Below, one piece after another: positions 7,279-54,341 of a stretch of DNA of 64,000 bases. Source of the DNA: Dehalococcoidia bacterium. Its GTDB lineage: Bacteria > Chloroflexota > Dehalococcoidia > Lucifugimonadales > UBA1127. The notes below the pieces were generated by a model. That model did not search any database. It was not told where the DNA came from and was given only the letters and a program-made list of their open reading frames with translations. Both the position numbers and the translations under genes were made by a program. Where the stretch lies: assembly GCA_034422455.1 (NCBI GenBank), contig DAOUJQ010000004.1:45737-109736 (forward strand), given 5' to 3'. The first letter of the stretch is position 1. Each line of letters begins with the position of its first letter.

Positions 7279-7862
7279 CGGAGGGCTCGTATTTCGAGGG
7301 CCGCCGCATCGCCGTTTACGGGCCCACTGGGAGCGGCAAGACGGGCTTGGGGTCGGAGGTCGCCCGGCGGCTGGCCCTGCCTCACATTGATTTGGACCAG
7401 GTGCACTGGCGGCCGGGATGGCGGGGCAAGCCGCGCGACCAGTTCCGCGCCGAGCTCACGTCATGGTTGGACGCCCGCCCCGGAGGTTGGGTCTGCACCG
7501 GCAATTACGCCAGCGTCGTAGGCGACCTCGTCATGTCCGGCGCCGACACCATCCTCTGGCTGCGGCTGCCGTTCCGGGTCGTGTTCTGGCGCCTCCTCCA
7601 GCGAACGCTCCACCGCTCTTTCACGTGGGAGCTGCAGTGGGGCACCAACCGCGAGACCCTTCGCAAGGCCTTCCTGAGCCGGGACTCCATCCTGCTGTGG
7701 TGCGTCACCCACTGGCGGGCCCACCACCGCCACGTCAGTGCGGCGCTCGCCGGGCACGCGGGCGATGCGGAGGTGATTGTGCTGCGGTCGCCGCGACAGG
7801 TGCGGGGTTGGTTGGAACGTGTGCCGCGCCTTGACCCTCTTCAGCGCGCGGCGATACACTGA
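7269..7862 (+). CDS. P-loop NTPase, adenylate-kinase-like (topology-modulation FlaR-like family)
   Basis: 197-aa ORF with GPTGSGKTG Walker A near the N-terminus. GTG start (7269 or 7275) overlaps the sbcC stop, so the two are likely translationally coupled. Confidence 0.65.
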   Translation: MGVTEGSYFEGRRIAVYGPTGSGKTGLGSEVARRLALPHIDLDQVHWRPGWRGKPRDQFRAELTSWLDARPGGWVCTGNYASVVGDLVMSGADTILWLRLPFRVVFWRLLQRTLHRSFTWELQWGTNRETLRKAFLSRDSILLWCVTHWRAHHRHVSAALAGHAGDAEVIVLRSPRQVRGWLERVPRLDPLQRAAIH

Positions 7863-7873
7863 AAACACCCCAA

Positions 7874-7947
7874 TGCCGAGTGGTGCAGCGGTAGCACGCG
7901 TGGCTCTGGACCACGAAACCTTGGTTCGAATCCAGGCTCGGCAGCCA
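7874..7947 (+). tRNA. tRNA-Gln (anticodon CTG), CCA encoded
   Basis: Hand fold: acceptor TGCCGAG/CTCGGCA, D stem GTGC/GCAC, anticodon stem CGTGG/CCACG with loop CTCTGGA, T arm CTTGG-TTCGAAT-CCAGG, then G-CCA. Confidence 0.9.
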
Positions 7948-8010
7948 CACCATTCTCCCCGTTGACTGCCCTTGCCCGCGTATGTCTGGGGGTCGAAATG
8001 ACGACGACGC

Positions 8011-9054
8011 TCAGTCGGCCGCCGTGGGAGCGGGATAGAACTGCGCGCAAAAGGCACGAAAGGGCATGATCTCGCCGTCTGAACGACACAGACGAGGCCG
8101 GGAACGGTAGCGCTTGCGGCTCCATATTGTCCGGTCCTGCCTGACGTCCTGGTTCTGTTGGATGACCATGAACCGATTGATGATGGGGGCGCGGAGCCGT
8201 CTCGGAAGAAAACCCAGGCCGGCAATCAACCGCTTCGGATTGCGGACCTCGTGCACTTGAGAGACCAGCGTCATGTCGATGAGCCTGCCGTCGACCGGCG
8301 TCGCCAGCACCCACAAGCGCATGTCCATGCCGATGCTGTGCTCCCGTATCTCCACGAAGGAATAGCCCAGCCCAACGACGTGGGTGAGCGCAGAGACTTC
8401 AATGGTAAGCTTGGCTAACCTTGCCACCTTCCGCACGCTCACAAAGTCGATCTGGCCTTCCAGCCGGGGCCCGTCCACCGTAATCGTCCCCGCGCGGCCC
8501 ACGCTGTCGTACCCATGCACGTACCGAAAGTGCGCCAGGTCCACGGAGTTCTCGGTGGTCTCTTGGGGATGACCGGGGAAGCGAAGCGTCCTTACCTTGT
8601 AATCGCACCAGCCGTCTTGCGCCGGGTCTTCCTCCGGCAGATGCCACTGCGGCTCCCTGTCGTTGATCCCCCACCACGCAAAGATCAGCCCGCAGACGTC
8701 CCGTGACGGAAAGACCCGCAGTTTCGCAGTCCTGGGCGCTTCGGCATACGGAGTGGCCACACACTGGCCGGTCGTATCGTACACATATCCGTGGAAGGGA
8801 CAGACGAGCCGTCCGTCCTGGATGCGGCCCCCCGCGGCGGGGCCGAGATAGGAGCCCAGGTGCGGGCAGTAGGCCTCCGCGACACAGACCTGCCCGTTAT
8901 TGTCACACCAGACGACGATGTCTTCGCCCATCCATGTCTTCTGGATGAGCCCGGCTTTCTGGATTTCCTTGCGGCTCGTGACAAAGTACCAGCCCTCGGG
9001 GAATGGGGAAGGGGCCTGTGCGGTGGCAGTTTCCCTGCCGGCCTGTTGCATCAT
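8011..9054 (-). CDS. Rieske non-heme iron oxygenase (distinct, shorter family than the four phthalate-type paralogs)
   Basis: 347-aa ORF. Rieske CPHLGSYL...CPFHGYVY. Catalytic iron motif ENSVDLAHFRYVHG (E-x3-D-x2-H-x4-H). Divergent from the P450 fusion gene. Confidence 0.85.
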   Translation of the reverse strand: MMQQAGRETATAQAPSPFPEGWYFVTSRKEIQKAGLIQKTWMGEDIVVWCDNNGQVCVAEAYCPHLGSYLGPAAGGRIQDGRLVCPFHGYVYDTTGQCVATPYAEAPRTAKLRVFPSRDVCGLIFAWWGINDREPQWHLPEEDPAQDGWCDYKVRTLRFPGHPQETTENSVDLAHFRYVHGYDSVGRAGTITVDGPRLEGQIDFVSVRKVARLAKLTIEVSALTHVVGLGYSFVEIREHSIGMDMRLWVLATPVDGRLIDMTLVSQVHEVRNPKRLIAGLGFLPRRLRAPIINRFMVIQQNQDVRQDRTIWSRKRYRSRPRLCRSDGEIMPFRAFCAQFYPAPTAAD

Positions 9055-9190
9055 GCCTCATCCTCGCCCATGGCTCTGAGTGACGGTCTCCTTGCCCCGA
9101 CTTCCACCGTAAGCTACACTTCATTGAAAATGCGTCGCTATGGTCGGCAATGTTAGAGGGTAGCATGGTGGTTGATGGGGAGCAAGGCGA

Positions 9191-11218
9191 ATGACCCTGA
9201 CCACAGATAGCGTAACAACCCAACCACTGGGATTGCCGGAAGAGCTCATCCTCATGCTCCTCAATGAGGAGAACGGCTACTTCCACCAGGTGCCGGGCTG
9301 GAACTTGAATTGCGCCATTATTGGCGCCGTCCTGGCGGAACTCTCTCTCCAGTCTCGCATTGACACGGACGTCAATTCCCTCTTCCTTCTGGACGCAAAA
9401 GAGACGGGCGATCCCGTCCTCGACTCCGTCCTGAAGGAGATTGCGTCGGATCCGGTCCAGCGAAACGCCCAGTACTGGATAGAACGGCTTGCGCACCTTG
9501 CGGATGAGGCCGTAGACCAGACCTTGGACCGTTTGGTCCATATGGGGATCCTGGAGTACCACGAGGGCGAATTCTGGACGCTCTCCCGCACGGTTTGGCA
9601 GACGGAGCTCTACACCGGCAGTCAGGAAGGAACGGCGGTAGAGTTCGTCAAGACTCGCATCGGCAAGGTGATCCTGGCGGGCGAGATTCCCGATCCCAGA
9701 GATGCGATCATCATTGCCCTGATCAACACGTGTGATGTCTTCCGCTTCATCTTCCCGCTGGACGAGGAGGCGGAAGCGCGCATCGATCTCATCAGCAAGC
9801 TGGACGTGATCGGCCGGTCCATTGCTGAGGCGGTCTCCCACAACCTGGCCGGCCCGTTGCTTCGACGAGCCGCGTTCTCCAAGGCCATTCCAACCGTCTC
9901 GCTGCGCAAGCTGCTGTTCAGCCCTCACATCCGCACCGGCAACATTCCCGCGCTCTTTGCCGGCTTTGCGGAAGAATACGGCCCGGTGTTTCAAATCCGC
10001 CCCCCGTTTCGGAAGCCCATGTACTTCCTGGCTGGGGTTGAGGTAAACCGGTGGGTGCACCGGCATGGCCGCATGTACCTGCGGGCAAGGGAATACTTCA
10101 GCGACATGGAAAAGGCCTACGGCGCGGCCGGGCTGATACCCTCCTTGGATGGCGCCGACCATTTTCGGCTGCGGAAGGCGATGCACCCGGGGTATGCCCG
10201 CGGGAGGCTGGAAGAGAACCTGGACCGGCTCTACCAACACGCGCGACAGCACATGACCGGGTGGACGGTGGGCGCTTCCTATACGGCAGTTACCATGTGT
10301 CGGCGGCTTGCCAATGCGCAGGTCTCGCAGCTCACCCTGAGCATCGACTCGCAGGACATCAGCGACGATCTGATAGAATTCAAGGAACGGGCCTTGGTCT
10401 CCCTGGTGGCGAAGATCATGCCGAAGTTCATGATGAACACCCCGGGCATGAAACGTCGGAGCAAGACCGTCGCTGAGGTGCTGCGCCGGGTCCAGAGCAC
10501 TCACACGTCCGCCCAGCGGGCCTACGCTCCCCGGGACTTTGCGGACGAGATGCTGAGCCTGCATGCGAGCGACCCGCAGTTCCTCCCCGAGTCCAACCTG
10601 AGCTTCATGCTTTCAGCGCCGCTGCTTGCCAGCATGTACGTCGGCGACATGCTGGGCTTCGCGCTCTACATGATGGCGTCCCAACCGGATCTCTACAGCA
10701 GGATTCGCGGTGAAGCCGATGCCCTGTTCGACAACGGCGACCCGGACAGCGAGGACTTCAGCCTCTCCGCCATCGACGTCACCCACCGCTTTCTCATGGA
10801 ATGCCTGCGCATGTATCCCACCATCACAATGTCCATTCGAAACGTCATGAACACCTTTGTGATCCAGGGCTACGAGATGCCCATCGGAGCGCGGGTCCAC
10901 ATCGCCACCACGGCCCCGCATTACATGAAGGACGTCTTTCCTGACCCCCACAGGTTTGACATTGACCGCTATCTGCCTCCGCGCAATGAGCACATCAGCC
11001 CCGGGTATTCCCCGTTTGGGCTGGGTACGCATACGTGTCTCGGCTCCCGGTGGGTGGAATTGCAGCTTGCCATCAACGTGTTGATGATCGCGCACTACTT
11101 CACCATTGAGGTGTCCCCTGCGAATTACAAGCTCCGGCTCAGTCCCTTTCCGTCCATGTCCGTCAGCAAGAAGCTGAAGTTCCGCATCGCAGAGCGGAGG
11201 CGTGAGCTAAACGTCTAA
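9191..11218 (+). CDS. Fusion protein: N-terminal GPP34/GOLPH3-like domain plus C-terminal cytochrome P450
   Basis: 675-aa ORF. The N-terminal ~215 aa (LPEELILMLLNEENGYF...IIGAVLAELSLQSRI) match the GPP34-family pattern. The C-terminal ~445 aa carry ExxR (ECLRMYP) and the heme-thiolate loop FGLGTHTCLGSRW. Confidence 0.85.
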   Translation: MTLTTDSVTTQPLGLPEELILMLLNEENGYFHQVPGWNLNCAIIGAVLAELSLQSRIDTDVNSLFLLDAKETGDPVLDSVLKEIASDPVQRNAQYWIERLAHLADEAVDQTLDRLVHMGILEYHEGEFWTLSRTVWQTELYTGSQEGTAVEFVKTRIGKVILAGEIPDPRDAIIIALINTCDVFRFIFPLDEEAEARIDLISKLDVIGRSIAEAVSHNLAGPLLRRAAFSKAIPTVSLRKLLFSPHIRTGNIPALFAGFAEEYGPVFQIRPPFRKPMYFLAGVEVNRWVHRHGRMYLRAREYFSDMEKAYGAAGLIPSLDGADHFRLRKAMHPGYARGRLEENLDRLYQHARQHMTGWTVGASYTAVTMCRRLANAQVSQLTLSIDSQDISDDLIEFKERALVSLVAKIMPKFMMNTPGMKRRSKTVAEVLRRVQSTHTSAQRAYAPRDFADEMLSLHASDPQFLPESNLSFMLSAPLLASMYVGDMLGFALYMMASQPDLYSRIRGEADALFDNGDPDSEDFSLSAIDVTHRFLMECLRMYPTITMSIRNVMNTFVIQGYEMPIGARVHIATTAPHYMKDVFPDPHRFDIDRYLPPRNEHISPGYSPFGLGTHTCLGSRWVELQLAINVLMIAHYFTIEVSPANYKLRLSPFPSMSVSKKLKFRIAERRRELNV

Positions 11219-11257
11219 TGCGCATGGGATAGTCCGAGCGGCAGAGACGGAGAGGGC

Positions 11258-12298
11258 CTACAAGGGCTTGCGCGCCAGAAAACAATACAACGGCGTGAAG
11301 ATCCCTGCCCTGCCTCCTGCGACATAGGCGTGGGCGGTACGGTCCAGCAGCCCGGCGACGTCCGTGGATCCCTTAGGGAACATCCCCAGCGCCTCAACCA
11401 GCCTGGATAGCCCAATGATCGCTTTGCGGCCTAGCGGAATCCTGCGCAGCCCCGTTGCCGAGCCCCTTGTCCCCCCGGTCTCCATGGGGCGATACCACGG
11501 CTTGGTCGAACCGTTCTCCCTTAAGGCCCGGTCCAGCCCCTCGATAACCTCAAACCCCGTTGCTTCAAGCGTCCGGTCCACCTCGCCGGTTGTCGCAATA
11601 TCATGCAGCGCGATGCCCTGCATGAGGTCCCGCTTGATGGCGCGGTGTCGACTGTCATCAGCATCGAATTTGTCCGTCATGCACATTTCCTGGCCCCAGA
11701 AGAGGGCTCCGGGTTTCAGCACGCGGTAGATCTCCGCGAACGCACCAGCCTTGTCCGGCGCATGGCACGTCGATTCGATCGCGTACCCCCGGTCGAAGGT
11801 GTTGTCCGCGATGGCGCCCATGTCCATGAAGCTGCACGCATGGTAGTCGACCATGTGATCGATCCCCGCCTCAACGTTCAGCTGTTTCGCCTTCTCCAAC
11901 TGGACTTCACTGCTATTGACCCCGGCGACCCTGACACCGGCCTCCCGGACCACGCGGCGCATTGGGCCGCCGATCCCGCAACCGACATCGATCACCGACA
12001 TGCCCTCACGCAGCTCCAACTTGGAGATCATCAGCCGCTGGTGCCGGATCTTGGAGTCTTCCAGGCTCTCCTGGGGCGATAGCGGCGCGAAGTGAAGGGA
12101 TTCGCCCCAACCGAACACCATGAACTCGCTGCAAAGGTCGTAATATTCCTTGACGGTTTCGGCGTGGTCATACCCCGTGGCGCCGGAATCCTGCGGGGAC
12201 GCCCTGTCGAGCCAGCCGGAGAAGCGTTGCACGCGATGGCGGACATCCGAGCCGCGGTAAGCGGTCTTCAACCCGGCGGACAGCTTGCGGAGTTGCAT
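11258..12298 (-). CDS. Sterol 24-C-methyltransferase (ERG6/SMT) family SAM-dependent methyltransferase
   Basis: 346-aa ORF that is colinear by eye with yeast Erg6. Matching blocks (this protein vs Erg6): YYDLCSEFMVFGWGESLHFAP vs YYNLVTDFYEYGWGSSFHF; VIDVGCGIGGP SAM motif; YAIESTCHAPD vs YAIEATCHAP; EIYRVLKPG; C-terminal AGGRAGIFTPLYCFLARKP vs AGGKSKLFTPMMLFVARKP. Confidence 0.85.
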   Translation of the reverse strand: MQLRKLSAGLKTAYRGSDVRHRVQRFSGWLDRASPQDSGATGYDHAETVKEYYDLCSEFMVFGWGESLHFAPLSPQESLEDSKIRHQRLMISKLELREGMSVIDVGCGIGGPMRRVVREAGVRVAGVNSSEVQLEKAKQLNVEAGIDHMVDYHACSFMDMGAIADNTFDRGYAIESTCHAPDKAGAFAEIYRVLKPGALFWGQEMCMTDKFDADDSRHRAIKRDLMQGIALHDIATTGEVDRTLEATGFEVIEGLDRALRENGSTKPWYRPMETGGTRGSATGLRRIPLGRKAIIGLSRLVEALGMFPKGSTDVAGLLDRTAHAYVAGGRAGIFTPLYCFLARKPL

Positions 12299-12315
12299 GA
12301 GCCCCCTTCCCGGGA

Positions 12316-14787
12316 CTAGCCCGGTTCCCCCTCGTGGCGCCGGTGCACGGCGTCGATGGCCGTGTCCAGCTCGTCGGCCCAGCGCAGCAGGTTGGAGCGC
12401 AGCCGCATGTTCTGGTAGGCGCCCCAGACCGTCATGGCCGGCGGCACCACCAGGACGGAGACGATCAGCGCGTAGGCGATGGTGATGGCCGCCGTTATGC
12501 CGAACTGCGCGGACGCCGCCAGCGGCGAGAACACCAGCACGCCGAGTCCGAGGGCCGTTGTCATTGCGGACCCCAGGAGCGCCGAGCCGGTAATCCTGAG
12601 GGTCCGGACCGCGGCCCTTTCCGGGTCGCGCACCTGCGCGTACTCTTCCCTGTAGCGATGGATGATGTGGATGGTGTAGTCCACCCCGATTCCTATCGAC
12701 AGCGCCGTGATGATCGACGTGATCATGGTGTAGGGGATGTCCAGCAGCGCCATGGTGCCCAGGACGCAGATGAGGACCAGGACGATGGGCCCCACCGCGA
12801 TGATCGCCAGCGCGGGCTGACGCACGGTCACCCAGAAGAAGAGGGCGAGGACGGTCAGGGCGGCGGCGACCGTCGTGGTGAAGGCCTCGGTCTGGTTCTC
12901 GGTGATGGCGTCGGTCACGTTGACGGAGATGACGGTGTTGGATGTCACCGTAATGGCGTCGTCGTCACCCTGCCAGAGGGCCTCGACCTCCCCTTGGAGC
13001 GCCTTGGTCTTGGCGGGGGAAGTTACGAACACGGGGAACTGGAACAGCATTGTGTCGATGCCGTTGGGGTCGTTGATGAGGAGGTGCCCGAAGGCCGGGT
13101 CCCGGTCATTGAGCTTGTCGAGGAAATCCTGCATCAGCGACGGGTCCAGCTGGACCCCGGCGTGGGCCTCCCGAAAGAGCGCGGCAAGCTCCGCGTCGTA
13201 CTTGTCGCCGGGCGCCCCGCTGTCGTTGGTCCAGTCATCGATGAGCAGCTGGTACGACGTTACTATGGGCCCGGCGGCCGCGGCCGGGCGCAAGCGCTCG
13301 ACCTCGAAGGCCGCGGTCAGGTCCTGCAGGTTCAGGAGGGTGCGGGTTTCCGTCGCCTCCGCCTTCAGGAGCACGCTGGCCAACTCCGTTGAGCCGCCGA
13401 CGGCCGCATCCAGCGAGGCCATGTCCTGGAATACGGTCCCGTTCCTGGGCAGAATGTCGCGGATATGGAACTCGGACTCAAGCCCTCTCGCTGAGAACCC
13501 AAGGGCAACGGTCACCGCCAGGACAACGATGATGTAGGGCGCGGGCCGGCGGGTGACGCTCCTGCCCAACATCTCCGCCAACCGATCGACGCCGGGCAGC
13601 GCGGTGGAGATTGGGCGGGAAGGCCGGAGCGTCCCGCGACGTTCCCGGCGGCGGTCGATGATCGTCCGGGCGGCCGGCACAAGCGTCAGCATGACGATCA
13701 GGCTCATGGTCACGCCAAGGCCGCCGATGATGCCGAAGTCCTTAGCGATGTCGATAGGCGAGAAGCGGTTCGCTAGGAGGCTGACCGTCGTGGTGACGGC
13801 GGCCAGCAGGAGGGGGACGGCGACGATCCTCAGTCCCGCCCGAACGGCCGTCAGCACCTGCGCCCCCGTGTTCCGCTGCTCCCGGTAGTGCGAGACGATC
13901 TGGATGGCGTAGTCCACGGTGAGGCCAATGATGATGATCGGCACCAGCGTCGTAAGCTGGTTCGGCGGGCCGACGAGGCCCAGGGCGTTCGGGCCGAGCC
14001 ATCCCTCCGCTCCGACAATCCAGATGATCGCCATGAGCAGTCCGGCGAGGGTGAGTAGCAAGTCGCTGATGGTGCGCATGAACAGCAGGATCAGGGCGGT
14101 AATCAGCAGGAACGCCAGTCCGATCAAGGGCGCCATGCCCTCCTCGGTGGCCTTCAGGTACTCGTCTTCAACGATGATGAAGGAGATGGTGCTTGCCTGC
14201 AGGGGACCCTCGCTGGCAAGGGCAAGCTCGTGGATCTTCCGCTCGACATCGTTGATCCGCTCGTCGCCGGTCTCGCGCAGCCGGATGGTGCCGACGGCGA
14301 CCGGCGTGCCGTCGGCATCGTCGCCGGTCAGGGCGTCGAGGGCCAGCTGGAGCTCCGGCGGAACGGAGGCCGAATCGATGGCCGCCTGCGTGACCGAACC
14401 GAAATCTTCCACTTGCAGCAGGGCCTTGTACAGGAACGAGGGCGCGATGAGCGGATCGTTAGCGGTGAGGAGCTCGCCCACGCCCGGTTCCGCGAGGACG
14501 CGGTTGAACAGAGTGTCCATCTGCGAGAGGCCGGCCGGAGTTATCCCCTCTCCGCGGAAGAGGACTGTCGTTACGCGGGCCTCGCCCGAGTCCGAGAAGA
14601 GCCTGTCAATCTCCTTGAGGGCCTGGGCGACGGCGTTGCCTTGGGGGAGGATTTCCGCCGTCTCCCGCGGCTGCGCTCTGTGCACGGCGCCATAGCCCAA
14701 TGCCACGGTGATGATGAGCAACACAAGCAGCGTCACCCACGGACGGGCCGTCACCAGCCTGCTCAACACATCGAGTAGTCGGCTCAT
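12316..14787 (-). CDS. MMPL/RND-superfamily membrane transporter (HpnN-like lipid exporter type)
   Basis: 823-aa ORF with two hydrophobic 6-TM blocks, each preceded by a soluble loop domain, which is the usual MMPL/RND layout. It ends 17 nt upstream of the SMT start, so the two are likely co-transcribed. Confidence 0.85.
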   Translation of the reverse strand: MSRLLDVLSRLVTARPWVTLLVLLIITVALGYGAVHRAQPRETAEILPQGNAVAQALKEIDRLFSDSGEARVTTVLFRGEGITPAGLSQMDTLFNRVLAEPGVGELLTANDPLIAPSFLYKALLQVEDFGSVTQAAIDSASVPPELQLALDALTGDDADGTPVAVGTIRLRETGDERINDVERKIHELALASEGPLQASTISFIIVEDEYLKATEEGMAPLIGLAFLLITALILLFMRTISDLLLTLAGLLMAIIWIVGAEGWLGPNALGLVGPPNQLTTLVPIIIIGLTVDYAIQIVSHYREQRNTGAQVLTAVRAGLRIVAVPLLLAAVTTTVSLLANRFSPIDIAKDFGIIGGLGVTMSLIVMLTLVPAARTIIDRRRERRGTLRPSRPISTALPGVDRLAEMLGRSVTRRPAPYIIVVLAVTVALGFSARGLESEFHIRDILPRNGTVFQDMASLDAAVGGSTELASVLLKAEATETRTLLNLQDLTAAFEVERLRPAAAAGPIVTSYQLLIDDWTNDSGAPGDKYDAELAALFREAHAGVQLDPSLMQDFLDKLNDRDPAFGHLLINDPNGIDTMLFQFPVFVTSPAKTKALQGEVEALWQGDDDAITVTSNTVISVNVTDAITENQTEAFTTTVAAALTVLALFFWVTVRQPALAIIAVGPIVLVLICVLGTMALLDIPYTMITSIITALSIGIGVDYTIHIIHRYREEYAQVRDPERAAVRTLRITGSALLGSAMTTALGLGVLVFSPLAASAQFGITAAITIAYALIVSVLVVPPAMTVWGAYQNMRLRSNLLRWADELDTAIDAVHRRHEGEPG

Positions 14788-15000
14788 TCGTCGTCATTCC
14801 TTCTGAGGAGTCCGGAGAAACCGCATCCTTCGCGGCTGAATCTGCCGGCATCAGACCGCCACACCTGCAACCGCACCCGTAACGGCGCTACGGTAGCATG
14901 GGGAGCAAAGGCGGACAAGACTCGGGAAAGCGCCAGCCGGCAATGGACACGCCGGCCCCCTGGCGCCCTTCACCGGGCGCCCTGCTCTTTCATGAGCGGA

Positions 15001-16038
15001 CTATGCTTCCACCCAGCACGCCGCCGCGTGACCGGGCGAGCGCTCCTCCAGCACGGGCGTCTCCGCGCGGCAGCGGTCGATGGCGTAGGCGCAGCGAGGG
15101 TGGAAGGCGCAACCCGCCGGCAATGCCGACAGGTCCGGCGGCGTGCCCTCGATGGTGGACAGCTTTACCCCCCTGTCCTGCTTGAGTTGCGGCACCGACT
15201 GCAGCAGTCCCTTGGTGTAGGGATGCTGCGGGTTCTGGAACAGGTCCACCGCCGTGCCGCTCTCCACGATCTTGCCCGCGTACATCACGTTGATCCGGCT
15301 CGCGTACCTCGCGATGACGCCCAGGTTGTGCGTGATGATGAGCACCGCCGTTCCCATCTCCGCCGAGAGCCGTTGCAGCATCTCCAGGATCTGCGCCTGG
15401 ATGGTCACGTCCAGCGCCGTCGTGGGCTCGTCCGCGATGAGCAGCCTGGGGTTGCAGCTCAGCGCCATGGCGATCATCACCCGCTGGCGCATCCCGCCGC
15501 TGAACTGGTGCGGGTAGCTCTTGAGCCGCTCCCTGGCGTCCGGTATGCCGACCGTGTGCAGCAGCTCGGCGGCGCGGGACGTGGCCTCGCGCTTGCCCAG
15601 TTGCAGGTGCACCTCCAGCGCCTCCGTGAGCTGCCGTTCGATGGTCAGCACCGGGTTCAGCGATGACATCGGCTCCTGGAACACCATCGCAATGCGGTTG
15701 CCCCGGACCTGCCGCATCTCGTCGACGCTCAGCGACAACAGGTCCTGCCCCTCGAACTCGACCGAGCCGCCGACGATGCGCCCCGGCGGGTCTTGCACCA
15801 GCCGCAGCAGCGAGAGGGCGCTGACGCTCTTACCGCACCCGCTCTCGCCCACCAGTCCGACGGTCTCGCCCTCCTGGATGTCGTAGCTGATCCCGTCGAC
15901 GGCCTTCACCACGCCCTCCCGGGTGGTGAAGTGCGTCCGCAGGTCCTTCACGGCGAGCAATGTGGCCAAGAGACTACCTCCGGTTTCGGTGGCGCTGCTG
16001 TCAGCATACGCATGGCCCACGACGCGCGCCAATCTCAT
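15001..16038 (-). CDS. ABC transporter ATP-binding protein, oligopeptide/dipeptide (OppD/DppD) type
   Basis: Walker A GESGCGKS, signature FSGGMRQR, Walker [13 protein letters not shown], and a C-terminal oligo_HPY-type tail with [10 protein letters not shown] at 16038. An alternative TTG start at 15969 is preceded by GGAGG. The 842-aa track ORF is an artefactual 5' extension. Confidence 0.85.
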
Positions 16039-16140
16039 GCATTGACTTTGGTGACATCGCGCGCGCCTTGCGGTATCATACCGCAACCGTGCGAGGAGCC
16101 ACGGGGCGTCTCGCTTTGTTGGTACAAGGAGAGTGTTGCC

Positions 16141-17430
16141 ATGTTGAGCGACGTCGACAACGAATTCATGTGTCGAATTGGGTCCGGCACGCCCATGGGC
16201 GAGTACCTGCGCCGGTTCTGGCTGCCCTTCCTCCTGCCGGAGGAGCTGCCGGAGCCCGACTGCCCGCCCGTCCGCACTACGCTTCTGGGCGAGGAGTTGG
16301 TGGCGTTCAAGGACACCAACGGCGAGGTCGGTCTGGTGGACAACTACTGCCCCCACCGGCGCGCCAGCCTCTTCTTCGGTCGGAACGAGGAGTGCGGCAT
16401 TCGCTGCGTCTACCACGGCTGGAAGTTCGACGTGAACGGCGACTGCGTCGACATGCCCTCGGAGCCCGCCGAGTCCAACTTCAAGGACAAGGTCAAGATC
16501 AAGGCCTACCCCGCCCGTGAGTACGGCGGCCTCATCTGGGCCTACATGGGCCCTGCGGAGCACATGCCGGCGCTGCCCAACATCGACTGGGCCACGCTGC
16601 CCGACAGCCACCGCGTCATCTCCAAGCGCATCCAGGAGAGCAACTGGGTCCAGTCCGTCGAGGGCGGCATCGACTCCAGCCACATCTCCTTCCTCCACAG
16701 CGGCGTCACGCCCTTCCTGCGCGACAACCCGGACAAGCGCCCGCCTGCACGCGTCGGAAGCCAGGCGGTGAACTTCACCACCACTGACACCTCGCCGAAG
16801 TTCGTCGTCGACGAAACGGACTACGGCCTTCTGATCTCCGCCCGCCGTGATGCCGACCAGGACCGCTACTACTTCCGCATCACCCAGATGCTCCTGCCCT
16901 TCTACACCATGATCCCCGGCTCCATCGATCCCGGGAAGCAGATCGGCGGCCACGCCTGGGTGCCCATCGATGACTACCACTGCTGGAACTTCAGCATCTC
17001 CTGGAACCCCTACCGACCCTTCACCCAGGAGGAGGTCAACGAGCACTGGAGCGGCACGGGCATCCACGCGCTCACGGACCACAAGTACGTCCCCCTCAGC
17101 AACAGCAGGAACGACTATATGATCGACCGGCAGGAGCAGAAGTACCGCACCTTCACCGGCATCCGCGGCATCGGCGAGCAGGACATGGGGACGCAGGAGT
17201 CCATGGGCGCCCTCACCTGGCGCGCCGGCGAGCACCTCGGCTCCAGCGACACCGCCATCATCGCCTACCGCCGCCGGCTGCTGAAGGAGGCCCGCAACCT
17301 GCAGGAGGGCATCGAGTCCTACGCGGCAACCCACCCCGACTGCTACAAGGTGCGCTCGGCGTCGGTCCTCATCAAGCGTAGCGAGGACTACCGCGTGGCG
17401 GCCGCAGACCGACTGGCAGCCCGCATCTAG
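16141..17430 (+). CDS. Rieske non-heme iron oxygenase alpha subunit (paralog, N-terminal domain nearly identical to 280..1530)
   Basis: Start ATG 16141 (MLSDVDNEFMCRIGSGTPMGEYLRRFW...) with AGGAGA SD. CPHRRASL...CVYHGWKF and EGGIDSSHISFLH motifs. Confidence 0.9.
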   Translation: MLSDVDNEFMCRIGSGTPMGEYLRRFWLPFLLPEELPEPDCPPVRTTLLGEELVAFKDTNGEVGLVDNYCPHRRASLFFGRNEECGIRCVYHGWKFDVNGDCVDMPSEPAESNFKDKVKIKAYPAREYGGLIWAYMGPAEHMPALPNIDWATLPDSHRVISKRIQESNWVQSVEGGIDSSHISFLHSGVTPFLRDNPDKRPPARVGSQAVNFTTTDTSPKFVVDETDYGLLISARRDADQDRYYFRITQMLLPFYTMIPGSIDPGKQIGGHAWVPIDDYHCWNFSISWNPYRPFTQEEVNEHWSGTGIHALTDHKYVPLSNSRNDYMIDRQEQKYRTFTGIRGIGEQDMGTQESMGALTWRAGEHLGSSDTAIIAYRRRLLKEARNLQEGIESYAATHPDCYKVRSASVLIKRSEDYRVAAADRLAARI

Positions 17431-17641: not shown

Positions 17642-18751
17642 ATGGCAGAGAAATCAGCGGCGGCAGTCATAGTTGCCCCTAGGGAGTTTGAGATCCGGGA
17701 GTTTGACCTGCCGGACATCCCGCCCGACGGTGGGCTGCTGCGCATCGAGCGATGCGGCATCTGCGGCAGCGACGTCCACGGCTACGACCGCATGGGCGAG
17801 GGCGTCCGCATCATGGGCCACGAGAACCTCGGCTGGATCGCCAAGATCGGCAGCGAGGCCTCCAAGCGCTGGGGCGTGAAGGAAGGCGACCGGGTCGCCG
17901 TTGAGGAGTACGTGCCTTGCGGCTCCTGCGAGTTGTGCCGCACCGGGTACCCGCGATTCTGCCCCCAGACCAGCTCCTTCGGCCACACCGGCGAAAACCC
18001 TCGCCTCTGGTACGGTTCCACGCCCATCAACGTGGAACCCGCGCTGTGGGGCGGCTACAGCCAGTACATGTACATGCACCCGGGCGCCATGGTGCACAAG
18101 GTCCCTGACCACGTGGACGCCTCGGAGGCGGCCTTCTTCTTGCCGTTCAGCAACGGCTACGAGTGGGCCGTCGAGTACGGCGGCGCCTCCATCGGCAAGA
18201 CCGTCGTCGTGCAGGGCCCCGGCCAGCAGGGCCTCGCCGCCGTCATCGCGGCGAGGGAGGCCGGCGCGTCCATGATCATCGTCAGCGGTATGGGCCGTGA
18301 CGAGCACCGCCTGGAGATCGCCCGCCGCATGGGCGCCGACTACACCGTCGACGTCGAGGCGGAAGACCTGGTCGAGCGGGTGATGCACTACACCGGCGGC
18401 CACGGCGCGGACGTGGTCGTCAACGTCACCGGCGGCGGCCGCGAGACGGTCAAGGAAGGCATCGACATGGCCGCTTTCAACGCGACCGTCTGCCTGCCCG
18501 CCGCCGGCAACGAGACCATCAACGTGGGCGGCACCGGCCGCAAGAACCTCACCATGAAGTGGTGCCACGGCCACTCCTACCGCTCGGTGGAGCGAGCGAT
18601 TAGCACCATCGCATCGGGCCGCTACCCCATCCATGAGATCGTCACCCACCACTTCGGCCTGAAGGATCTCAAGTACGCTATCGACTCCGTCGGCGGCATC
18701 GGGGCAGCGGGCGCCATCCACGTCAGCATAGACCCCTGGATGGACCTCTAA
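17642..18751 (+). CDS. Zinc-dependent alcohol dehydrogenase (MDR family)
   Basis: 369-aa ORF. Catalytic zinc motif CGICGSDVH...GHE, structural zinc CGSCELC, and Rossmann motif VQGPGQQG. Confidence 0.9.
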   Translation: MAEKSAAAVIVAPREFEIREFDLPDIPPDGGLLRIERCGICGSDVHGYDRMGEGVRIMGHENLGWIAKIGSEASKRWGVKEGDRVAVEEYVPCGSCELCRTGYPRFCPQTSSFGHTGENPRLWYGSTPINVEPALWGGYSQYMYMHPGAMVHKVPDHVDASEAAFFLPFSNGYEWAVEYGGASIGKTVVVQGPGQQGLAAVIAAREAGASMIIVSGMGRDEHRLEIARRMGADYTVDVEAEDLVERVMHYTGGHGADVVVNVTGGGRETVKEGIDMAAFNATVCLPAAGNETINVGGTGRKNLTMKWCHGHSYRSVERAISTIASGRYPIHEIVTHHFGLKDLKYAIDSVGGIGAAGAIHVSIDPWMDL

Positions 18752-18774
18752 GCCCACACCCCTCGGACGCCAGA

Positions 18775-18810
18775 GGGCCCCGCTCGTACTGAGCGGGGCC
18801 CTTGCCTTTC
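18775..18810 (+). terminator. Intrinsic terminator-like hairpin downstream of the alcohol dehydrogenase gene
   Basis: Perfect 11-bp stem GGGCCCCGCTC / GAGCGGGGCCC with loop GTACT, followed by TTGCCTTTC. Confidence 0.6.
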
Positions 18811-18883
18811 AATGCATCGCCAAACCGGCGGATGCCCTCCTCCGTACTGCGATACGGGGCCAGTATCCAGGGGAGTGGGGCAG

Positions 18884-19207
18884 CCCCGTAGGGGCGACCC
18901 TTGTGGTCGCCCGCCCCCTGTTCGTCCTGAGCCTGTCCTGAGAATAGTGGAAGGGCGCCCCACGGACAGTGGGCCCTCTCACTCGTCGTTCCTGCGAAGG
19001 CAGGAACCCAGAGGGGCAGGGGCGGGCGGGGCAACCGCCGCCACGCTCGCCCCCCAACCCCTCACCCCGTTCGCCCTGAGTCTGTCGAAGGGGTCGCTGC
19101 AAGGTCCTCGATGGGCCTTGCGGCGACGGCCTCCCACACAGCAGGGAAACCTTGGCAGACGCACCTCCCTCCCCTCATACCGGCGCATGCCGGTATCCAG
19201 AAACCCC
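18884..19207. repeat. Cluster of GC-rich palindromic repeats (RepD, RepB x2, RepC x2)
   Basis: RepD 18884-18916 (GTAGGGGCGACC-CTTGT-GGTCGCCC). RepB 18916-18955 and 19065-19093 (CCGTTCGYCCTGAG..TGTCGAAGGG). RepC 18982-19021 (TTCCTGC-GAAG-GCAGGAA + CCCAGAGGGG). RepC variant 19176-19207 (ATACCGGC-GCAT-GCCGGTAT + CCAGAAACCCC). Confidence 0.8.
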
Positions 19208-19220
19208 GCGCCCAACAACA

Positions 19221-19520
19221 CCCTGCCACCGCCCCCTTGCCCCCGACATTCCCCCGTCGCTACCATCCCCACATGCCAAACCCAACCACCCACAGAAACC
19301 GGAATCACCCAACCGAGGACTGTACACGCGCACGACGGGAATTGTTCCTCACGGGTGGCATTTTTCGAACGTGTAGGTGAAACGCGCCAATTTCCCTACA
19401 AAACGAAGACGACGCAAAACGTCGGCCAGCTACGAAAAATGACGAAACAATGCGGGCGATCGCACCGTTACGCCACGCCCCGGTGGACCGCGATCGTCCC
19501 CAGCATCAGCCCTCGGCAGC
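19221..19520 (-). repeat. Inverted copy of the segment found at 44740..45210 (segmental duplication, includes a RepH-beta element)
   Basis: The reverse complement aligns block by block with 44740-45210: GGCTGATGCTGGGGACGATCGC, GGGGCGTGGCGTAAC, ATTGTTTCGTC, TTTTCGTAGCTGG, GGGAAATTGGCGCGTTT, GAACAATTCC-GTCGTGCGCG, GGGGGCAAGGGGG-GGTGGCAGGG. It lacks the 54-bp tandem insert. Confidence 0.8.
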
Positions 19521-33663: not shown

Positions 33664-33905
33664 TACCGGCCCGGAGAGCCGTTGATTGCCGGACACGCCG
33701 GCAGTCAAGGTGGTGATGTGTATCTGCAAGTATAGCTGTCGGCATGCCCCTGCGTCAATTTGAGGTGGGCCCCGGCCAAGTGCATCGGGGTGGTGGGCGG
33801 ACCGGTGAAGGGTCGCTGCTCCGAGCTGCTCCCGCTTTACTTGCACGCTGTTGCTGGCCAGAATATGCACAGGGATGTCGCAGTTGCTTTCGAGGTATAT
33901 CGCAC

Positions 33906-34964
33906 GTGCCTGCTTCACCAACCGGCTCGGCCCCGCCTCCTTCGCCGGACTTCCTGGGAAAGTACCAGGAGCCCGTGCAAGCCGCCCTCCGTGACCGGCT
34001 CGCCGGATTCCCCCCACCCATTGGCACGATGCTCCGGTACCACATGGGATGGGAGTCGCCGTCGGGCGTTCCGGAAGAGTACGCTTCCGGCAAGCGGCTC
34101 CGTCCCGCCCTTTGCCTCTTCACCTGCGAGGCCTATGGTGGCGACATAGCTGACGCGCTGCCCGCTGCCGTGGCCCTGGAGCTGATCCATAACTTCTCCC
34201 TCATCCACGACGACATCCAGGACCAGGACCTGGAACGGCACGGGCGGGGCACCGTCTGGTCGATCTGGGGCAAGCCCAGCGGCGTGGTGGCCGGCAACGC
34301 CCTCCGTACCGTCGCCGACGCCACTGTCTACGATCTCCGTCAAGCCGGGGCGTCCTCGCAGGCCGTGCTGGAGACCACTCAAACCCTCACCGGCCGGTGT
34401 CTGGAACTGGTGGAGGGTCAGCGCATGGACCTCAGCTTTGAGGACCGTCTCAACGTCACGCCTGACGAGTACCTGGACATGGTCGCCCGCAAGACCGGCG
34501 CCCTGGTGGAGGCGGCGATGCGCATGGGTGCGCTCCTCGGCGGCGCTTCGATGGAGCAGGCAGACCGGGCCGCTCGCTGCGGCAGGCTGCTGGGGCTCAC
34601 CTTCCAGGCCCGTGACGACGTTCTGGGCATCTGGGGCGACCCCGTGCTTATGGGCAAGGCCACCGGCGCCGACATTCGCAGACGCAAGAAGTCGTTGCCC
34701 GTGGTCTTCGGGTTCACGCAGTCAACCGGTGAGGCAAAAGAACGCCTGGAACGCATCTACGGCGCCGACGAGGCGATGGGTGAGGCCGAGGTTTCCGAGG
34801 TGATGGGCATCCTCGATCGTCTCGACGCCCTGGAATACGCGCAGTCGGTGGCGGAGGAGAAGAGTGCCCTCGCCATGGGGGTCGCTCGGGAAGCGGGGCT
34901 CTCCGGCGAAGCCCTGGAGGAGCTACAGGACCTTGCGCATTTCTTTGCTCACCGGGACCACTAG
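33906..34964 (+). CDS. Polyprenyl diphosphate synthase (FPP/GGPP synthase family)
   Basis: First Asp-rich motif LIHDDIQD and second motif FQARDDVLGIWGD. The start is uncertain: GTG 33906 is chosen, and the track ORF begins at 33744. Confidence 0.8.
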   Translation: MPASPTGSAPPPSPDFLGKYQEPVQAALRDRLAGFPPPIGTMLRYHMGWESPSGVPEEYASGKRLRPALCLFTCEAYGGDIADALPAAVALELIHNFSLIHDDIQDQDLERHGRGTVWSIWGKPSGVVAGNALRTVADATVYDLRQAGASSQAVLETTQTLTGRCLELVEGQRMDLSFEDRLNVTPDEYLDMVARKTGALVEAAMRMGALLGGASMEQADRAARCGRLLGLTFQARDDVLGIWGDPVLMGKATGADIRRRKKSLPVVFGFTQSTGEAKERLERIYGADEAMGEAEVSEVMGILDRLDALEYAQSVAEEKSALAMGVAREAGLSGEALEELQDLAHFFAHRDH

Positions 34965-35768
34965 ATGACTTTGGACCTGCGCCCGGGCGTCAACATCGCC
35001 ATCCTGGTGGCCATTCCGCAGGAGGCTCAAGGGGTCCTCAGAGCCGGACAATGGCGGCCCGTCCAGTTGCCGGGTACCGTGGCGGCCTATGTTGGCGAGG
35101 GTGCGGAGGCGGGCGCCTTCCTGGCCGTGAGCGGCGTAGGCCCGGCGATGGCAACTGATGCCACGAAGGCGGTACTGGACGCTTACAGCCCCCACGCCGT
35201 GTTGTCGATGGGCTACGCGGGAGGGCTTGCCACCGGCCAGCGCCCCGGCGATCTCGTTGTCGCGGAGTCGCACGCTCCTATGCCAGGCGGTGAGCCCCAA
35301 CCGCCGTCTCTTCCGGCGATCGTGACAACTGACCCCGGCATGCTGGAAACCGCACTGCGCGTGGCGGCCCGGCTCGGGCTGCGCCACAACGTGGGGCCGA
35401 TGCTGGCGTCAAACAGGGTGCTGGCCGGCTCAGAGGAAAAGCTGCGGATGGGAGCGGAAACCGGTGCGGTGGCTGTGGATATGGAGAGCTATTGGATGGG
35501 GGTGGTTTGCCAGGAGAGTGGAGTGCCGTTTGTCACAGCCCGGGTGGTGGTGGACACGGCTGAACATACCATTCCTGTCTCTGTAGCGCGGAGGGTGATG
35601 GGCGCCGGCCTCCGCAGTCCCTGGCCGCTTGCGCTGAGAGTGGCGTTGGCGCCGTGGGGGGCCCCGGGACTGGTGCGGTTAAGCCGGGCGGCAGCGAAAG
35701 CCCGCGCCACGCTGACAGCCTTTGGGTTGGCGTGGCTGGGCGGCATGAAAAAGGCCCCGGGCGAATGA
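34965..35768 (+). CDS. hpnG: Nucleoside phosphorylase-family protein (hopanoid-associated HpnG-like)
   Basis: 267-aa PNP/UDP-family fold (AILVAIPQEA..., AVDMESY). The ATG directly abuts the upstream stop. The HpnG assignment rests on its position next to hpnCDE. Confidence 0.6.
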   Translation: MTLDLRPGVNIAILVAIPQEAQGVLRAGQWRPVQLPGTVAAYVGEGAEAGAFLAVSGVGPAMATDATKAVLDAYSPHAVLSMGYAGGLATGQRPGDLVVAESHAPMPGGEPQPPSLPAIVTTDPGMLETALRVAARLGLRHNVGPMLASNRVLAGSEEKLRMGAETGAVAVDMESYWMGVVCQESGVPFVTARVVVDTAEHTIPVSVARRVMGAGLRSPWPLALRVALAPWGAPGLVRLSRAAAKARATLTAFGLAWLGGMKKAPGE

Positions 35769-35846
35769 ATGCGCCATCGCAGTCTGCGCGGGTGATGGTC
35801 CGGCATCGTTGTTGCGTGGAAGTAGCCGTTGCGCGACACTGAGGCT

Positions 35847-36737: not shown

Positions 36738-36752
36738 GGTGGGGAGCACGAC

Positions 36753-52934: not shown

Positions 52935-54341
52935 TCAGCGCCGCCTGCGCGCCTTCGCCTTCGCCTTCTTAAAAGCCCAGCCGTACATGATGCTCCCGTA
53001 GTAGTTGAACGTCCGCCTCGCCTGCGCGTCCTCGAAGGGGTAGTCGGCCCCCAGCTGCCGCGCCGTGGCCAGCCCGCTGACAAAGCAGGTCTCCTGGCTG
53101 TTGACCAGCGTGTGGGCGCCGCAGTGCCACGTCCGCCGCCTGCCCTGGATGAAGCGGAAGAGCTGGATGACCCACGCCACGTGGCGGACGTCGTGCACGA
53201 TGTGCTGGAACCACCACCGCTTGATCACCTTGTCGTCATCTATCCTGCTGACCGGGTTGTAGGTCACCAGGCACGGCTTGTCCGACCGTTTGGCCCACGG
53301 CTGCTGGTTGTGCATGATGTAGGTGATCTCGTAGTTGTCGGGCCGCGCGCCGTACTGCTCGACGTGGTTGCTGCGCGTCTCCAGCGCCCGCACCTCATCG
53401 TCGGGCAGCACGGAGGCGTCCGAGTGCACGACCGTGTGGTTGTGGAGCTCGCTCTCATAGCGGATCGACGAGAGGATGTACCGCTCCATGAACGAGGGCT
53501 TGTCGAGCGCCATCAGCGTCTGGTTGGCGTTGCACGCGAAAATCACCTCGTCAAACGCCTCCTCGACCCCGTCCTCGTCCTCCACCACGACATGCGTCCG
53601 ATGGCGGTGCACCTTCCTGACGGGCCGGTTGACGTAGATCTTGTCCCGAAAGCCCGCGGACAGGTTCTCGTAGATCCGCCGGGTCCCCTGGTCCCACGTC
53701 CGCATGGGCGTAGCCACCTCGATGTCGAAGAACTCCAGGTACCGGGAAAACAGCGACGCCGGCATGTCGAACACGTTGGTCGCCATGAGGAAGTTGACGA
53801 ACATGGGCTTGAGGACCTTGTACCTGAAGTCCGGGGACAGGCCCGCCACGTTGAGGACGGCGCCCATGCTGATGTAGTTGAAGGGGTTGAGGGCGTTCAC
53901 CAGCCTCGACTGGGAGCGGGTCAGCCGCCCGAACCAGTGCAAGCGCTTCAGGACCCGCTGGAACTTCGCGATGTCGTCCCGGAGCTGGCGCCTGATGTCG
54001 GAGTCGAAATCGTGGGCGTATATCTGGCCGCGGTACCTGACGCTGTAGTTGAACCTGGTCTCCAGCAGCTCGATGCCGAACTGCTCCATCAACAGCAGGA
54101 TGTGCTGGTACACCGACGGAATGAGGGCGGTGACGGAGATGTCGAAGGGGACCGAGCTGCCGTCATCCTGCGGCATGTCGGCGGTGATCGCGTTGCCGCC
54201 AATCCGGTCTTGCGCCTCGAACAGCCGGAAGTCAAACCGGTCCGGGTGTTGGCCCAACGCCCACGCGGCCCCAAGGCCCGAAACGCCTCCGCCGACGATG
54301 GCTATCCGCCTCGGCCCCGCTGCAGTCCCCGTTTTCGCCAT
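52935..54341 (-). CDS. NAD(P)/FAD-dependent oxidoreductase (amine-oxidase-like fold)
   Basis: 468-aa ORF with an N-terminal IAIVGGGVSGLGAAWAL...FEAQDRIGGNA dinucleotide-binding motif. Confidence 0.8.
   Translation of the reverse strand: MAKTGTAAGPRRIAIVGGGVSGLGAAWALGQHPDRFDFRLFEAQDRIGGNAITADMPQDDGSSVPFDISVTALIPSVYQHILLLMEQFGIELLETRFNYSVRYRGQIYAHDFDSDIRRQLRDDIAKFQRVLKRLHWFGRLTRSQSRLVNALNPFNYISMGAVLNVAGLSPDFRYKVLKPMFVNFLMATNVFDMPASLFSRYLEFFDIEVATPMRTWDQGTRRIYENLSAGFRDKIYVNRPVRKVHRHRTHVVVEDEDGVEEAFDEVIFACNANQTLMALDKPSFMERYILSSIRYESELHNHTVVHSDASVLPDDEVRALETRSNHVEQYGARPDNYEITYIMHNQQPWAKRSDKPCLVTYNPVSRIDDDKVIKRWWFQHIVHDVRHVAWVIQLFRFIQGRRRTWHCGAHTLVNSQETCFVSGLATARQLGADYPFEDAQARRTFNYYGSIMYGWAFKKAKAKARRRR

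Follow-up and report, generated by a model that had tools for sequence, protein, structure and literature searches.

A 64,000-nucleotide stretch of a Dehalococcoidia bacterium genome (contig DAOUJQ010000004.1; hereafter the window) encodes a protein of 675 aa in which a GPP34 (GOLPH3-like) domain is joined to a cytochrome P450. The fusion is real, and its neighbour genes are the strongest clue to its function, as they suggest sterol metabolism. We favour, with moderate confidence, a reading in which the protein is a sterol-tailoring P450 that docks on a membrane or on a partner protein and forms the core of a cassette for sterol tailoring and transport in sponge bacteria. Confidence in a sterol pathway is moderate because the evidence for the family is genomic and about half of the loci lack a gene for sterol C-24 methyltransferase (SMT). 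The class of substrate, the task of the GPP34 domain and the cytoplasmic location are inferences.

The fused protein and its I-helix

Both domains that the original prediction recognized in this uninterrupted open reading frame (ORF; Table 1) are strongly matched in Pfam. The GPP34 match, which confirms the assignment of the N-terminal region, covers profile positions 1-199 of 201 (E = 2.1e-32), and the p450 match has E = 3.1e-33; both are far over the curated cut-offs. The GPP34 motif LPEELILMLL is found at aa 15-24. The N-terminus reads MTLTTDSVTTQPLGLPEELILMLL..., and its hydrophobic stretch is the first GPP34 helix, aligned to LTLMEEVLLLGL of GOLPH3. By inspection, the N-terminus shows no features of a Sec or Tat signal peptide.

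The same architecture is widespread in public genomes. Both Pfam domains occur in all of the 120 best clusters from a 5.8-billion-protein collection (67-72% identical, 654-697 aa), and the full-length fusion is encoded by 123 GTDB species representatives, including records titled as assembled chromosomes. These genomes belong to the Chloroflexota, Nitrospirota, Latescibacterota, Gemmatimonadota, Acidobacteriota and Bacteroidota, and to the Gammaproteobacteria, Alphaproteobacteria and Actinomycetota (Acidimicrobiia). Given that the linker between the domains is conserved across orthologues, and that at least 120 independent clusters and 123 species genomes share the architecture at a length of 672-680 aa, an assembly chimera or a frameshift fusing two separate genes can be dismissed. 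The novelty of the fusion did not survive, as the architecture has been published under the name 'GPP34_L' (GPP34 plus P450), for a monophyletic group of 656 proteins restricted to sponge symbionts (Ferreira et al. 2025, Microbiome 13:4, PMC11706023). The window protein adds one more member to this family. The architecture is common and described, though biochemically uncharacterised, which is half of what the original prediction named as its refutation.

The P450 signatures listed in the original prediction, including ExxR (ECLRMYP), are present. Among 49 orthologues, the set used for all counts of residue invariance in the fusion, E537 and R540 of ExxR are invariant. The PERF-type motif is PHRF (P586-H-R-F589). 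The haem loop satisfies F-x-x-G-x-x-x-C-x-G, with G610, L611, G612, T613, H614, C616, L617 and G618 invariant, and nearly every complete sequence in the superfamily alignment retains the loop.

The I-helix acid-alcohol pair is missing, as had been noticed from the sequence. In the HMMER alignment, A480-S-M-Y483-V484-G-D of the window protein pairs with A-G-H-H-T-S-S of CYP51. In the superfamily alignment, A-S-M-Y-V lies opposite the canonical A-G-L-D-T of paralogues, so that Gly is replaced by Ser, the acid by Tyr and Thr by Val. S481, Y483, G485 and D486 are invariant. Most superfamily members, fused or not, keep A-G-x-D/E-T, and the motif is lost only in the clade nearest the window protein. 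There, ASMYV of the window protein corresponds to ASVYG in P0121, ASIYI in P0124, AAIYL in P0125 and KSIYV in P0134; P0127 and P0129 have AGHYT and are CYP51-like intermediates. Loss of the acid-alcohol pair is thus a derived trait of one clade.

As a sign of non-canonical O2 activation, the loss of the Thr may be taken only as a hint, because ordinary monooxygenases without that Thr exist. The I-helix acid-alcohol motif is typical of the P450 family, not obligatory. The CYP7 clan has Asn at the Thr position, and EryF and CYP61/CYP710 have Ala, and these are ordinary monooxygenases or desaturases. In the window protein, Tyr483 might have taken on the delivery of protons; alternatively, the enzyme might act on peroxides and not activate O2 at all.

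By sequence, the closest relatives with solved structures are CYP51 (E = 3e-20) and CYP184A1 (E = 7e-19), followed by CYP120A1, taxadiene hydroxylase, CYP3A, CYP46A1 and CYP11. By fold, the leading PDB matches from Foldseek are CYP3A4, CYP184A1, Methylococcus capsulatus CYP51 and BM3, which point to a generic class-II P450 and to no specific family. The best TM-score normalised by target length is 0.79, for M. capsulatus CYP51. By these comparisons, the P450 is 'eukaryote-like' and has no match at family level. We considered and rejected an identity as CYP51: the match with E = 3e-20 covers the C-terminal half only, Foldseek identity is 20-21%, and a genuine CYP51, encoded a few genes from the fusion in one Nitrospirales locus (L007), matches at E = 3e-104. 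Also rejected was a redox-partner fusion of the BM3, CYP116B or CYP51-ferredoxin type, as no flavodoxin, FAD, ferredoxin or Rieske profile matches the fusion protein.

Linkage to sterol genes

In the window, the fusion gene lies between genes for a KshA-type Rieske oxygenase and an SMT, and beyond the SMT gene, upstream of it on its strand, lies one for a transporter of the resistance-nodulation-division (RND) superfamily, of MMPL/HAE3 type, with a sterol-sensing domain (SSD). The best solved relative of the Rieske protein is 3-ketosteroid 9alpha-hydroxylase (KshA; E = 2e-25), and CxH/CxxH and DxxHxxxxH motifs are visible in its translation. A large-database search with this protein, seeking Neverland-type relatives, returned orthologues only. 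The transporter also matches HAE3, HpnN and BstA-like models, the last two weakly; its scores are far under the HpnN and BstA equivalog cut-offs, and we therefore place it in a different subfamily (HAE3/MMPL).

We searched 80 species-representative loci with the window proteins by tblastn, within 10 kb of the fusion gene. Homologues were found of the KshA-like Rieske protein at 58 loci, of the SMT at 42 and of the MMPL transporter at 41, and of the housekeeping flanks Ffh and SbcC at none. De novo clustering of ORFs from the same 80 loci added a FAD (flavin adenine dinucleotide) amine-oxidase-type oxidoreductase at 37 loci, with its gene in most cases immediately upstream of the fusion, an AcrB-type RND pump at 24 (in 23 of which it replaces MMPL), ERG4/ERG24 sterol reductases (PF01222, E = 2e-72) at 11, often in tandem, and an MpaB/Lcp-type oxygenase at eight. 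Sixty-two loci extend 5 kb or more on both sides of the fusion. Of these 62, 54 encode an RND transporter, 42 the Rieske oxygenase, 32 an SMT and 32 the FAD oxidoreductase, and none lacks all seven partner families. Two loci carry a second, divergent GPP34-P450 copy a few kb from the orthologue (L072:7003-8850, 29% identity; L074:13450-15393, 43% identity), which agrees with the occurrence of multiple copies described by Ferreira et al.

The most direct linkage to a sterol pathway comes from the Nitrospirales. L007 (OZ241905.1, a record titled 'chromosome: 1') carries, in this order, the GPP34-P450 fusion, two SMT genes, a squalene epoxidase-oxidosqualene cyclase (OSC) fusion, CYP51, ERG4/24, an SdmA-like gene and SdmB. 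In a second locus, L002, the order is fusion, SMT, KshA-like Rieske, unknown, FAD oxidoreductase, SMT, SdmB, SdmA and ERG4/24. The unknown gene (L002:14286-15200, - strand) is a 304-aa ORF with no NCBIfam match. Thus, a de novo sterol cluster abuts the fusion in both Nitrospirales loci that were annotated in full. Three others (L012, L021, L034) have an SMT homologue and then an ORF of ~1135-1280 aa that carries the cyclase motifs of L007, as judged by motif match, and a fourth (L038) has a cyclase-type ORF by motif and no SMT match. Because a separate, genuine CYP51 neighbours the fusion in the Nitrospirales loci and an SdmA neighbours the KshA-like Rieske gene, the GPP34-P450 and the Rieske protein would be extra tailoring enzymes rather than the canonical demethylases.

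A cluster from a 'Nitrospira MAG' (metagenome-assembled genome) has been tabulated previously, with SMT gene 270, three unannotated genes, SMT 274, sdmB, sdmA, ERG24, CYP51 and SMO-OSC (Brown et al. 2023, PMC10070321 Supplementary Data 1). The gene order in L002 reproduces this cluster. Its unannotated genes are probably members of the cassette described here, and gene 269 is probably the fusion.

The P450 domain was also used to search 1.84 billion cluster representatives. About 45 of the top 150 are full-length GPP34-P450 proteins, with P450 identity down to 26%, and stand-alone P450s of ~450 aa are interleaved among them. GPP34-P450 proteins thus form a deep, diversified superfamily. We examined the context of three paralogues, a small sample (loci L081, L083 and L085). 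The Thr-less P0124 has as neighbours a tripartite RND pump (OEP-AcrB-MFP), an MpaB/Lcp oxygenase and a FAD oxidoreductase. P0142, which keeps AGxDT, is encoded between acyl-CoA synthetases and CoA-transferases, with Tn5-type transposases flanking, and P0151, which also keeps AGxDT, beside a sulfotransferase, an acyltransferase_3 protein, a short-chain dehydrogenase/reductase and a PhyH protein. Within these few cases, the RND/Rieske/SMT cassette seems to accompany the atypical I-helix. An adjacent GPP34 gene was sought for two stand-alone P450 relatives, uninformatively: the contig of P0144 is 1.5 kb long, and P0168 lacks a lipid context.

The cassette appears to be mobile and horizontally spread. 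Fusion sequences share a median of 68% identity across phyla, compared with 71% inside the Chloroflexota, and 12 of 75 fusion sequences have their nearest neighbour in another phylum. Some cross-phylum pairs are 80-96% identical (L030/L059 96%, L011/L005 90%, L001/L002 80%). These high values reflect either very recent transfer or, for short-read MAGs, binning error.

In JGI metagenomes, only 13 fusion loci were found among 241 million records. We take the MKWU records to be from an Aplysina aerophoba metagenome and the LXNJ records from a Petrosia ficiformis metagenome. Judging from their names, the MAGs with close relatives of the fusion are presumably sponge bins plus two coral bins; the latter (L060 and L071, isolates Plut_88890 and Plut_88899) we take to be from the coral Porites lutea. 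This may mean that the GPP34-P450 family is not confined to sponges in a strict sense.

The GPP34 domain and the possible roles of the fusion

The profile of the fusion N-domain matches GOLPH3 (3KN1) with E = 1e-4, and hhalign aligns the N-domains with GOLPH3 over 167 columns with a probability of 78%. GOLPH3 binds phosphatidylinositol 4-phosphate (PI4P) via W81, R90, R171 and R174, and the double mutants W81A/R90A and R171A/R174A lose this binding (Wood et al. 2009, PMC2806290). In the sequence alignment, W81 corresponds to W37 of the window protein, and so may be kept, R90 to I44, R171 to D105 (a charge reversal) and R174 to V108. Among 44 diverse fusions, Ala occupies the R90 position in 34 and an acidic residue (Asp or Glu) the R171 position in 29; Arg or Lys is found at neither. 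The R174 position is Arg in 21, and Val, Ile or Leu in the clade of the window protein. By this comparison, the canonical PI4P pocket appears not to be conserved in the GPP34 domain of the window.

GOLPH3 also has a projecting beta3/beta4 hairpin with hydrophobic side chains, which may insert into membranes, as suggested by Wood et al. (PMC2806290). In the AlphaFold2 (AF2) model of the fusion, strands at aa 121-124 and 128-131 make up a predicted beta-hairpin (aa 121-131), where model confidence is moderate. F128 is invariant among the orthologues, and in the alignment of N-domains both it and W129 reach at least 90% conservation. It seems more likely that the GPP34 domain docks the enzyme on a bacterial membrane or partner than on host PI4P. 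The proposal that the N-domain is a membrane or lipid tether rather than an electron supplier is supported as plausible.

Put together, the fusion would be a cytoplasmic haem-thiolate P450. Its substrate would be a sterol embedded in the membrane, or a closely related triterpenoid intermediate, which the bacterium makes itself or takes from its host. It would act alongside the KshA-like Rieske oxygenase and the SMT, and the RND pump would carry either the substrate or the product through the envelope. With its hairpin face, and not the canonical PI4P pocket, the GPP34 domain may attach the P450 to the membrane or to another protein, such as the transporter, and would stand in for the N-terminal membrane anchor of microsomal P450s. 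That the closest solved relatives are sterol and terpenoid P450s counts in favour of this proposal, as do the HpnC, HpnD and HpnE genes of the window (below).

Several points weigh against it. About half of the loci have no SMT gene within 10 kb, and the families that recur in the cassette at the 80 loci include no ferredoxin or reductase that would account for the electron supply. Because the linkage spans several kinds of genes, both oxygenases and pumps, lineages without SMT could use a hydrophobic substrate that is not a sterol. In the wider fusion superfamily, about one member in two still has Arg at the R174 position, and with W81 perhaps kept as W37, the GPP34 domain could possibly bind some phosphoinositide or anionic lipid. 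The AF2 model is of moderate quality (mean predicted local distance difference test score, pLDDT, 70; predicted TM-score, pTM, 0.63) and holds no usable information on contacts between the domains or with a membrane. A sterol function for the family is a prediction from genomes, and the published interpretation is that of a secreted effector (PMC11706023).

Of the competing explanations, a catabolic or detoxifying module survives best, although we consider it unlikely. The P450 and the Rieske oxygenase would attack host sterols or toxic sponge terpenoids, for carbon or for RND efflux. The solved structure nearest to the Rieske partner belongs to a catabolic enzyme, KshA, RND pumps accompany the fusion in 54 of the 62 loci with flanks of at least 5 kb, the paralogue P0142 is encoded amid acyl-CoA synthetases and CoA-transferases, and the window host carries several LigXa-type Rieske oxygenases. 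However, the commonest specific partners (SMT and ERG4/24) are anabolic, and the Nitrospirales have the whole OSC/CYP51/SdmAB pathway. Moreover, besides the KshA-like Rieske protein, no annotated recurrent neighbour family belongs to steroid-ring degradation or side-chain beta-oxidation.

Ferreira et al. proposed that GPP34 proteins are secreted effectors that bind PI4P on sponge phagosomes and block their maturation (PMC11706023); the P450 would then be accessory. The GPP34 fold is genuine, the family has been described as a hallmark of sponge symbionts and as confined to them, GPP34_L genes are expressed in Aplysina aerophoba metatranscriptomes (PMC11706023), and among the mere 13 loci from JGI metagenomes are the MKWU and LXNJ records, which we take to be from sponges. 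We nevertheless regard secretion into the host as quite unlikely for the fusion. Three of the four residues of the PI4P pocket are replaced, with the charge of R171 reversed, a Sec or Tat signal is not visible in the N-terminus, and the gene is found among those for cytoplasmic or inner-membrane sterol enzymes and RND pumps, not secretion systems. In addition, a haem P450 normally requires cytoplasmic redox partners.

The I-helix bears on a third alternative, in which the P450 does not activate O2 and, in the manner of thromboxane, prostacyclin or allene-oxide synthase, rearranges sterol hydroperoxides or endoperoxides, or uses peroxide, with no need of redox partners. The clade-specific, derived state of the helix is in its favour (Thr changed to Val or Leu, the acid to an invariant Tyr, G485-D486 invariant), as is the lack of a conserved ferredoxin or reductase gene in the cassette. 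Thromboxane synthase also lacks the Thr, with Ile in its place, and sponges are rich in sterol 5alpha,8alpha-endoperoxides. We consider such chemistry quite improbable, as the CYP7 clan, EryF and CYP61/CYP710 do without the Thr as ordinary monooxygenases or desaturases. The missing partner genes say little, given that the Rieske partner also needs a reductase from outside the cassette.

Returning to the sterol-tailoring proposal, its farthest extension is speculative and, to us, rather doubtful. Sponge-symbiont SMTs are active, and three SMTs of symbiotic bacteria make 24-isopropyl side chains, their sources being an Aplysina aerophoba sponge metagenome (two SMTs) and a Chlamydiae MAG from drinking water (one SMT) (Brown et al. 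2023, PMC10070321). The cassette could, as a whole, be the missing tailoring machinery behind unusual sponge sterols. In this combined scenario, the window-type SMT would be an orthologue of a symbiont SMT that forms 24-isopropyl side chains, unprecedented sterol oxidations or partner-free peroxide rearrangements would fall to the Thr-less P450 and the KshA-like Rieske oxygenase, and GPP34 would be an ancestral membrane adaptor of lipid enzymes, which would recast the origin of eukaryotic GOLPH3. The contig JGIcombinedJ30088_10000835 was not among the matches of our metagenome scan, and a link from the window to the propylating SMT is conjectural. If the combined scenario were true, symbionts would contribute directly to 'sponge' sterol biomarkers.

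The sterol cassette brings together two literatures, one on GPP34 as a hallmark of symbiosis and one on symbiont sterol pathways and 24-isopropyl SMTs, which bear on the oldest claimed animal biomarker. If the fusion is indeed a docked sterol-tailoring enzyme, tests of this 'symbiosis gene' would shift to sterol turnover and membrane docking, beyond phagosome assays alone. The cassette would offer candidate enzymes for unexplained modifications of sponge sterols, and the fusion would be a natural bacterial P450 with a peripheral-membrane module instead of a transmembrane anchor. Its clade, with an unusual Tyr/Val I-helix, would be available for mechanistic study.

Genomic setting and comparison with known systems

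Table 1. Coordinates of the fusion, its domains and motifs, and associated genes. Positions are those of the window, except for locus L007.
Feature	Position	Strand	Basis or remark
GPP34-cytochrome P450 fusion gene, 675 aa, 'GPP34_L' family member	9191..11218	+	single unbroken ORF, ATG start
GPP34 domain, aa 15-216	9233..9838	+	PF05719
Cytochrome P450 domain, aa 247-654	9929..11152	+	PF00067
Atypical I-helix A480-S-M-Y-V-G-D486, replacing A-G-x-D/E-T-T/S	10628..10648	+	alignments
K-helix ExxR, E537-C-L-R540	10799..10810	+	motif and conservation
Haem-thiolate loop FGLGTHTCLG, aa 609-618, Cys616	11015..11044	+	motif and conservation
Rieske [2Fe-2S] oxygenase, KshA-type catalytic domain, divergent from fusion	8011..9054	-	PF00355 and PF19298 KshA_C, E = 6e-22
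SMT, convergent with fusion	11258..12298	-	PF08498 Sterol_MT_C (E = 1.6e-16) and S-adenosylmethionine (SAM)-methyltransferase domain
MMPL/HAE3-type RND transporter with SSD, upstream of SMT, same strand	12316..14787	-	PF03176, PF12349 Sterol-sensing, PF02460 Patched
FAD amine-oxidase-type oxidoreductase	52935..54341	-	80% identical to L001:8384-9772, a gene beside the fusion there
L007 GPP34-P450 fusion	10001-12028	+	
L007 squalene epoxidase-oxidosqualene cyclase fusion, 1200 aa	14460-18062	-	Pfam
L007 genuine CYP51	17879-19351	-	E = 3e-104 to M. capsulatus CYP51
L007 SdmA-like			E = 4e-121

The Rieske, fusion and SMT genes (8011-12298) have a GC content of 0.61, compared with ~0.66 in flanking genes. 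At third codon positions it is 0.78-0.80, compared with ~0.85-0.95 in the flanks; the MMPL gene (0.89) resembles the flanks. The lower values of the three genes fit a horizontal spread of the cassette. A tRNA-Gln(CTG) gene (7874-7947, + strand) abuts this low-GC block, the Rieske stop codon being at 8011-8013. We found no integrase, and no att-like direct repeats linking this tRNA gene to the far end of the cassette. In a scan of 7800-15800 for sigma-70 promoters and terminators, matches were no more frequent than in shuffled sequence. Genes outside the cassette block are housekeeping (Ffh, SbcC, SecDF, CCA-adding enzyme). Three LigXa-type Rieske oxygenases, which are not of the KshA-like family, flank the cassette (280-1530, -; 1555-2844, -; 15793-17430, +). 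The FAD oxidoreductase of the window is unlinked, lying ~41 kb from the cassette beside tRNA genes at 52630-52712 (-) and 52844-52917 (+).

About 25 kb from the cassette, at 33744-39004 (+), are genes for a polyprenyl diphosphate synthase, an HpnG-like phosphorylase, HpnC, HpnD and HpnE. The last three, all over NCBIfam curated cut-offs, constitute the three-step bacterial squalene pathway, and thus the window organism can make squalene. No squalene-hopene or oxidosqualene cyclase gene lies within the window. The window Ffh shares 76% identity with a SAR202 protein and 64-66% with others labelled Dehalococcoidia or Chloroflexi, which points to a SAR202-like Chloroflexota bacterium as host. An ORF of 1178 aa at 46706-50242 (-) has no Pfam or NCBIfam match, an N-terminal hydrophobic anchor, a Ser/Thr/Ala/Asp-rich composition and a GC content under that of its neighbours. 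It may encode a surface or S-layer-type protein.

None of the publications that we searched joins GPP34, sterol and symbiont in the sense proposed here. The words 'sterol' and 'methyltransferase' are absent from the text of Ferreira et al. (PMC11706023). Sponge symbionts of ten phyla carry horizontally transferred sterol gene clusters, in which CYP51 is given as the P450 and where 'P450' occurs once in the text (Kelly et al. 2022, PMC9531527). In the main text of Brown et al. (PMC10070321) and in the supplementary files covered, GPP34, P450 and Rieske are not mentioned, and in these files the SMT peptide motifs of the window and Chloroflexi/SAR202 have no match. A 2025 SMT preprint does not discuss gene context. 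New here, beyond Ferreira et al., are the linkage to a sterol cassette, a GPP34 domain without the PI4P arginines, an N-terminus with no visible signal peptide and the clade-specific loss of the acid-alcohol pair.

Among solved P450s, CYP51 (sterol 14alpha-demethylase), including the CYP51-ferredoxin fusion of M. capsulatus (PDB 6MCW, 7SNM), is the best relative by sequence and by TM-score normalised by target length (0.78-0.79), and the sterol context is common to both. CYP51 likewise has a non-acidic residue at the I-helix acid position, but the GPP34-P450 has lost the Thr as well, shares ~20% identity with CYP51, and is fused to a partner domain that is not a redox protein. With the eukaryotic PI4P-binding Golgi adaptors GOLPH3/Vps74 (PDB 3KN1, 2ZIH), the fusion has in common the GPP34 fold; it may also have a beta-hairpin at the equivalent place, as predicted with moderate confidence. 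It differs in being fused to an enzyme, in its bacterial host and in a domain that starts at residue 15, without a long N-terminal extension. The MMPL protein shares an SSD and Patched profile matches with RND sterol and hopanoid transporters (BstA of Methylococcus, HpnN; NPC1/Patched).

The closest counterparts are the GPP34_L proteins, with the same domain architecture, length (~660-690 aa) and phyla; the window protein is 67-72% identical to many relatives, including NCBI entries from sponge MAGs. The orthogroup of the window differs by its sterol cassette, its absent PI4P arginines and its clade-specific I-helix. Taxa and, presumably, habitat are likewise shared with the published sterol clusters of sponge symbionts (Kelly et al., PMC9531527; Brown et al., PMC10070321), and one gene ID in Supplementary Data 1 of Brown et al. 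matches both ERG1 and ERG7, as in the epoxidase-cyclase fusion of L007. In the Nitrospirales, the GPP34-P450 gene adjoins the core genes of such clusters, whereas in most other phyla surveyed here the cassette is detached from the core pathway.

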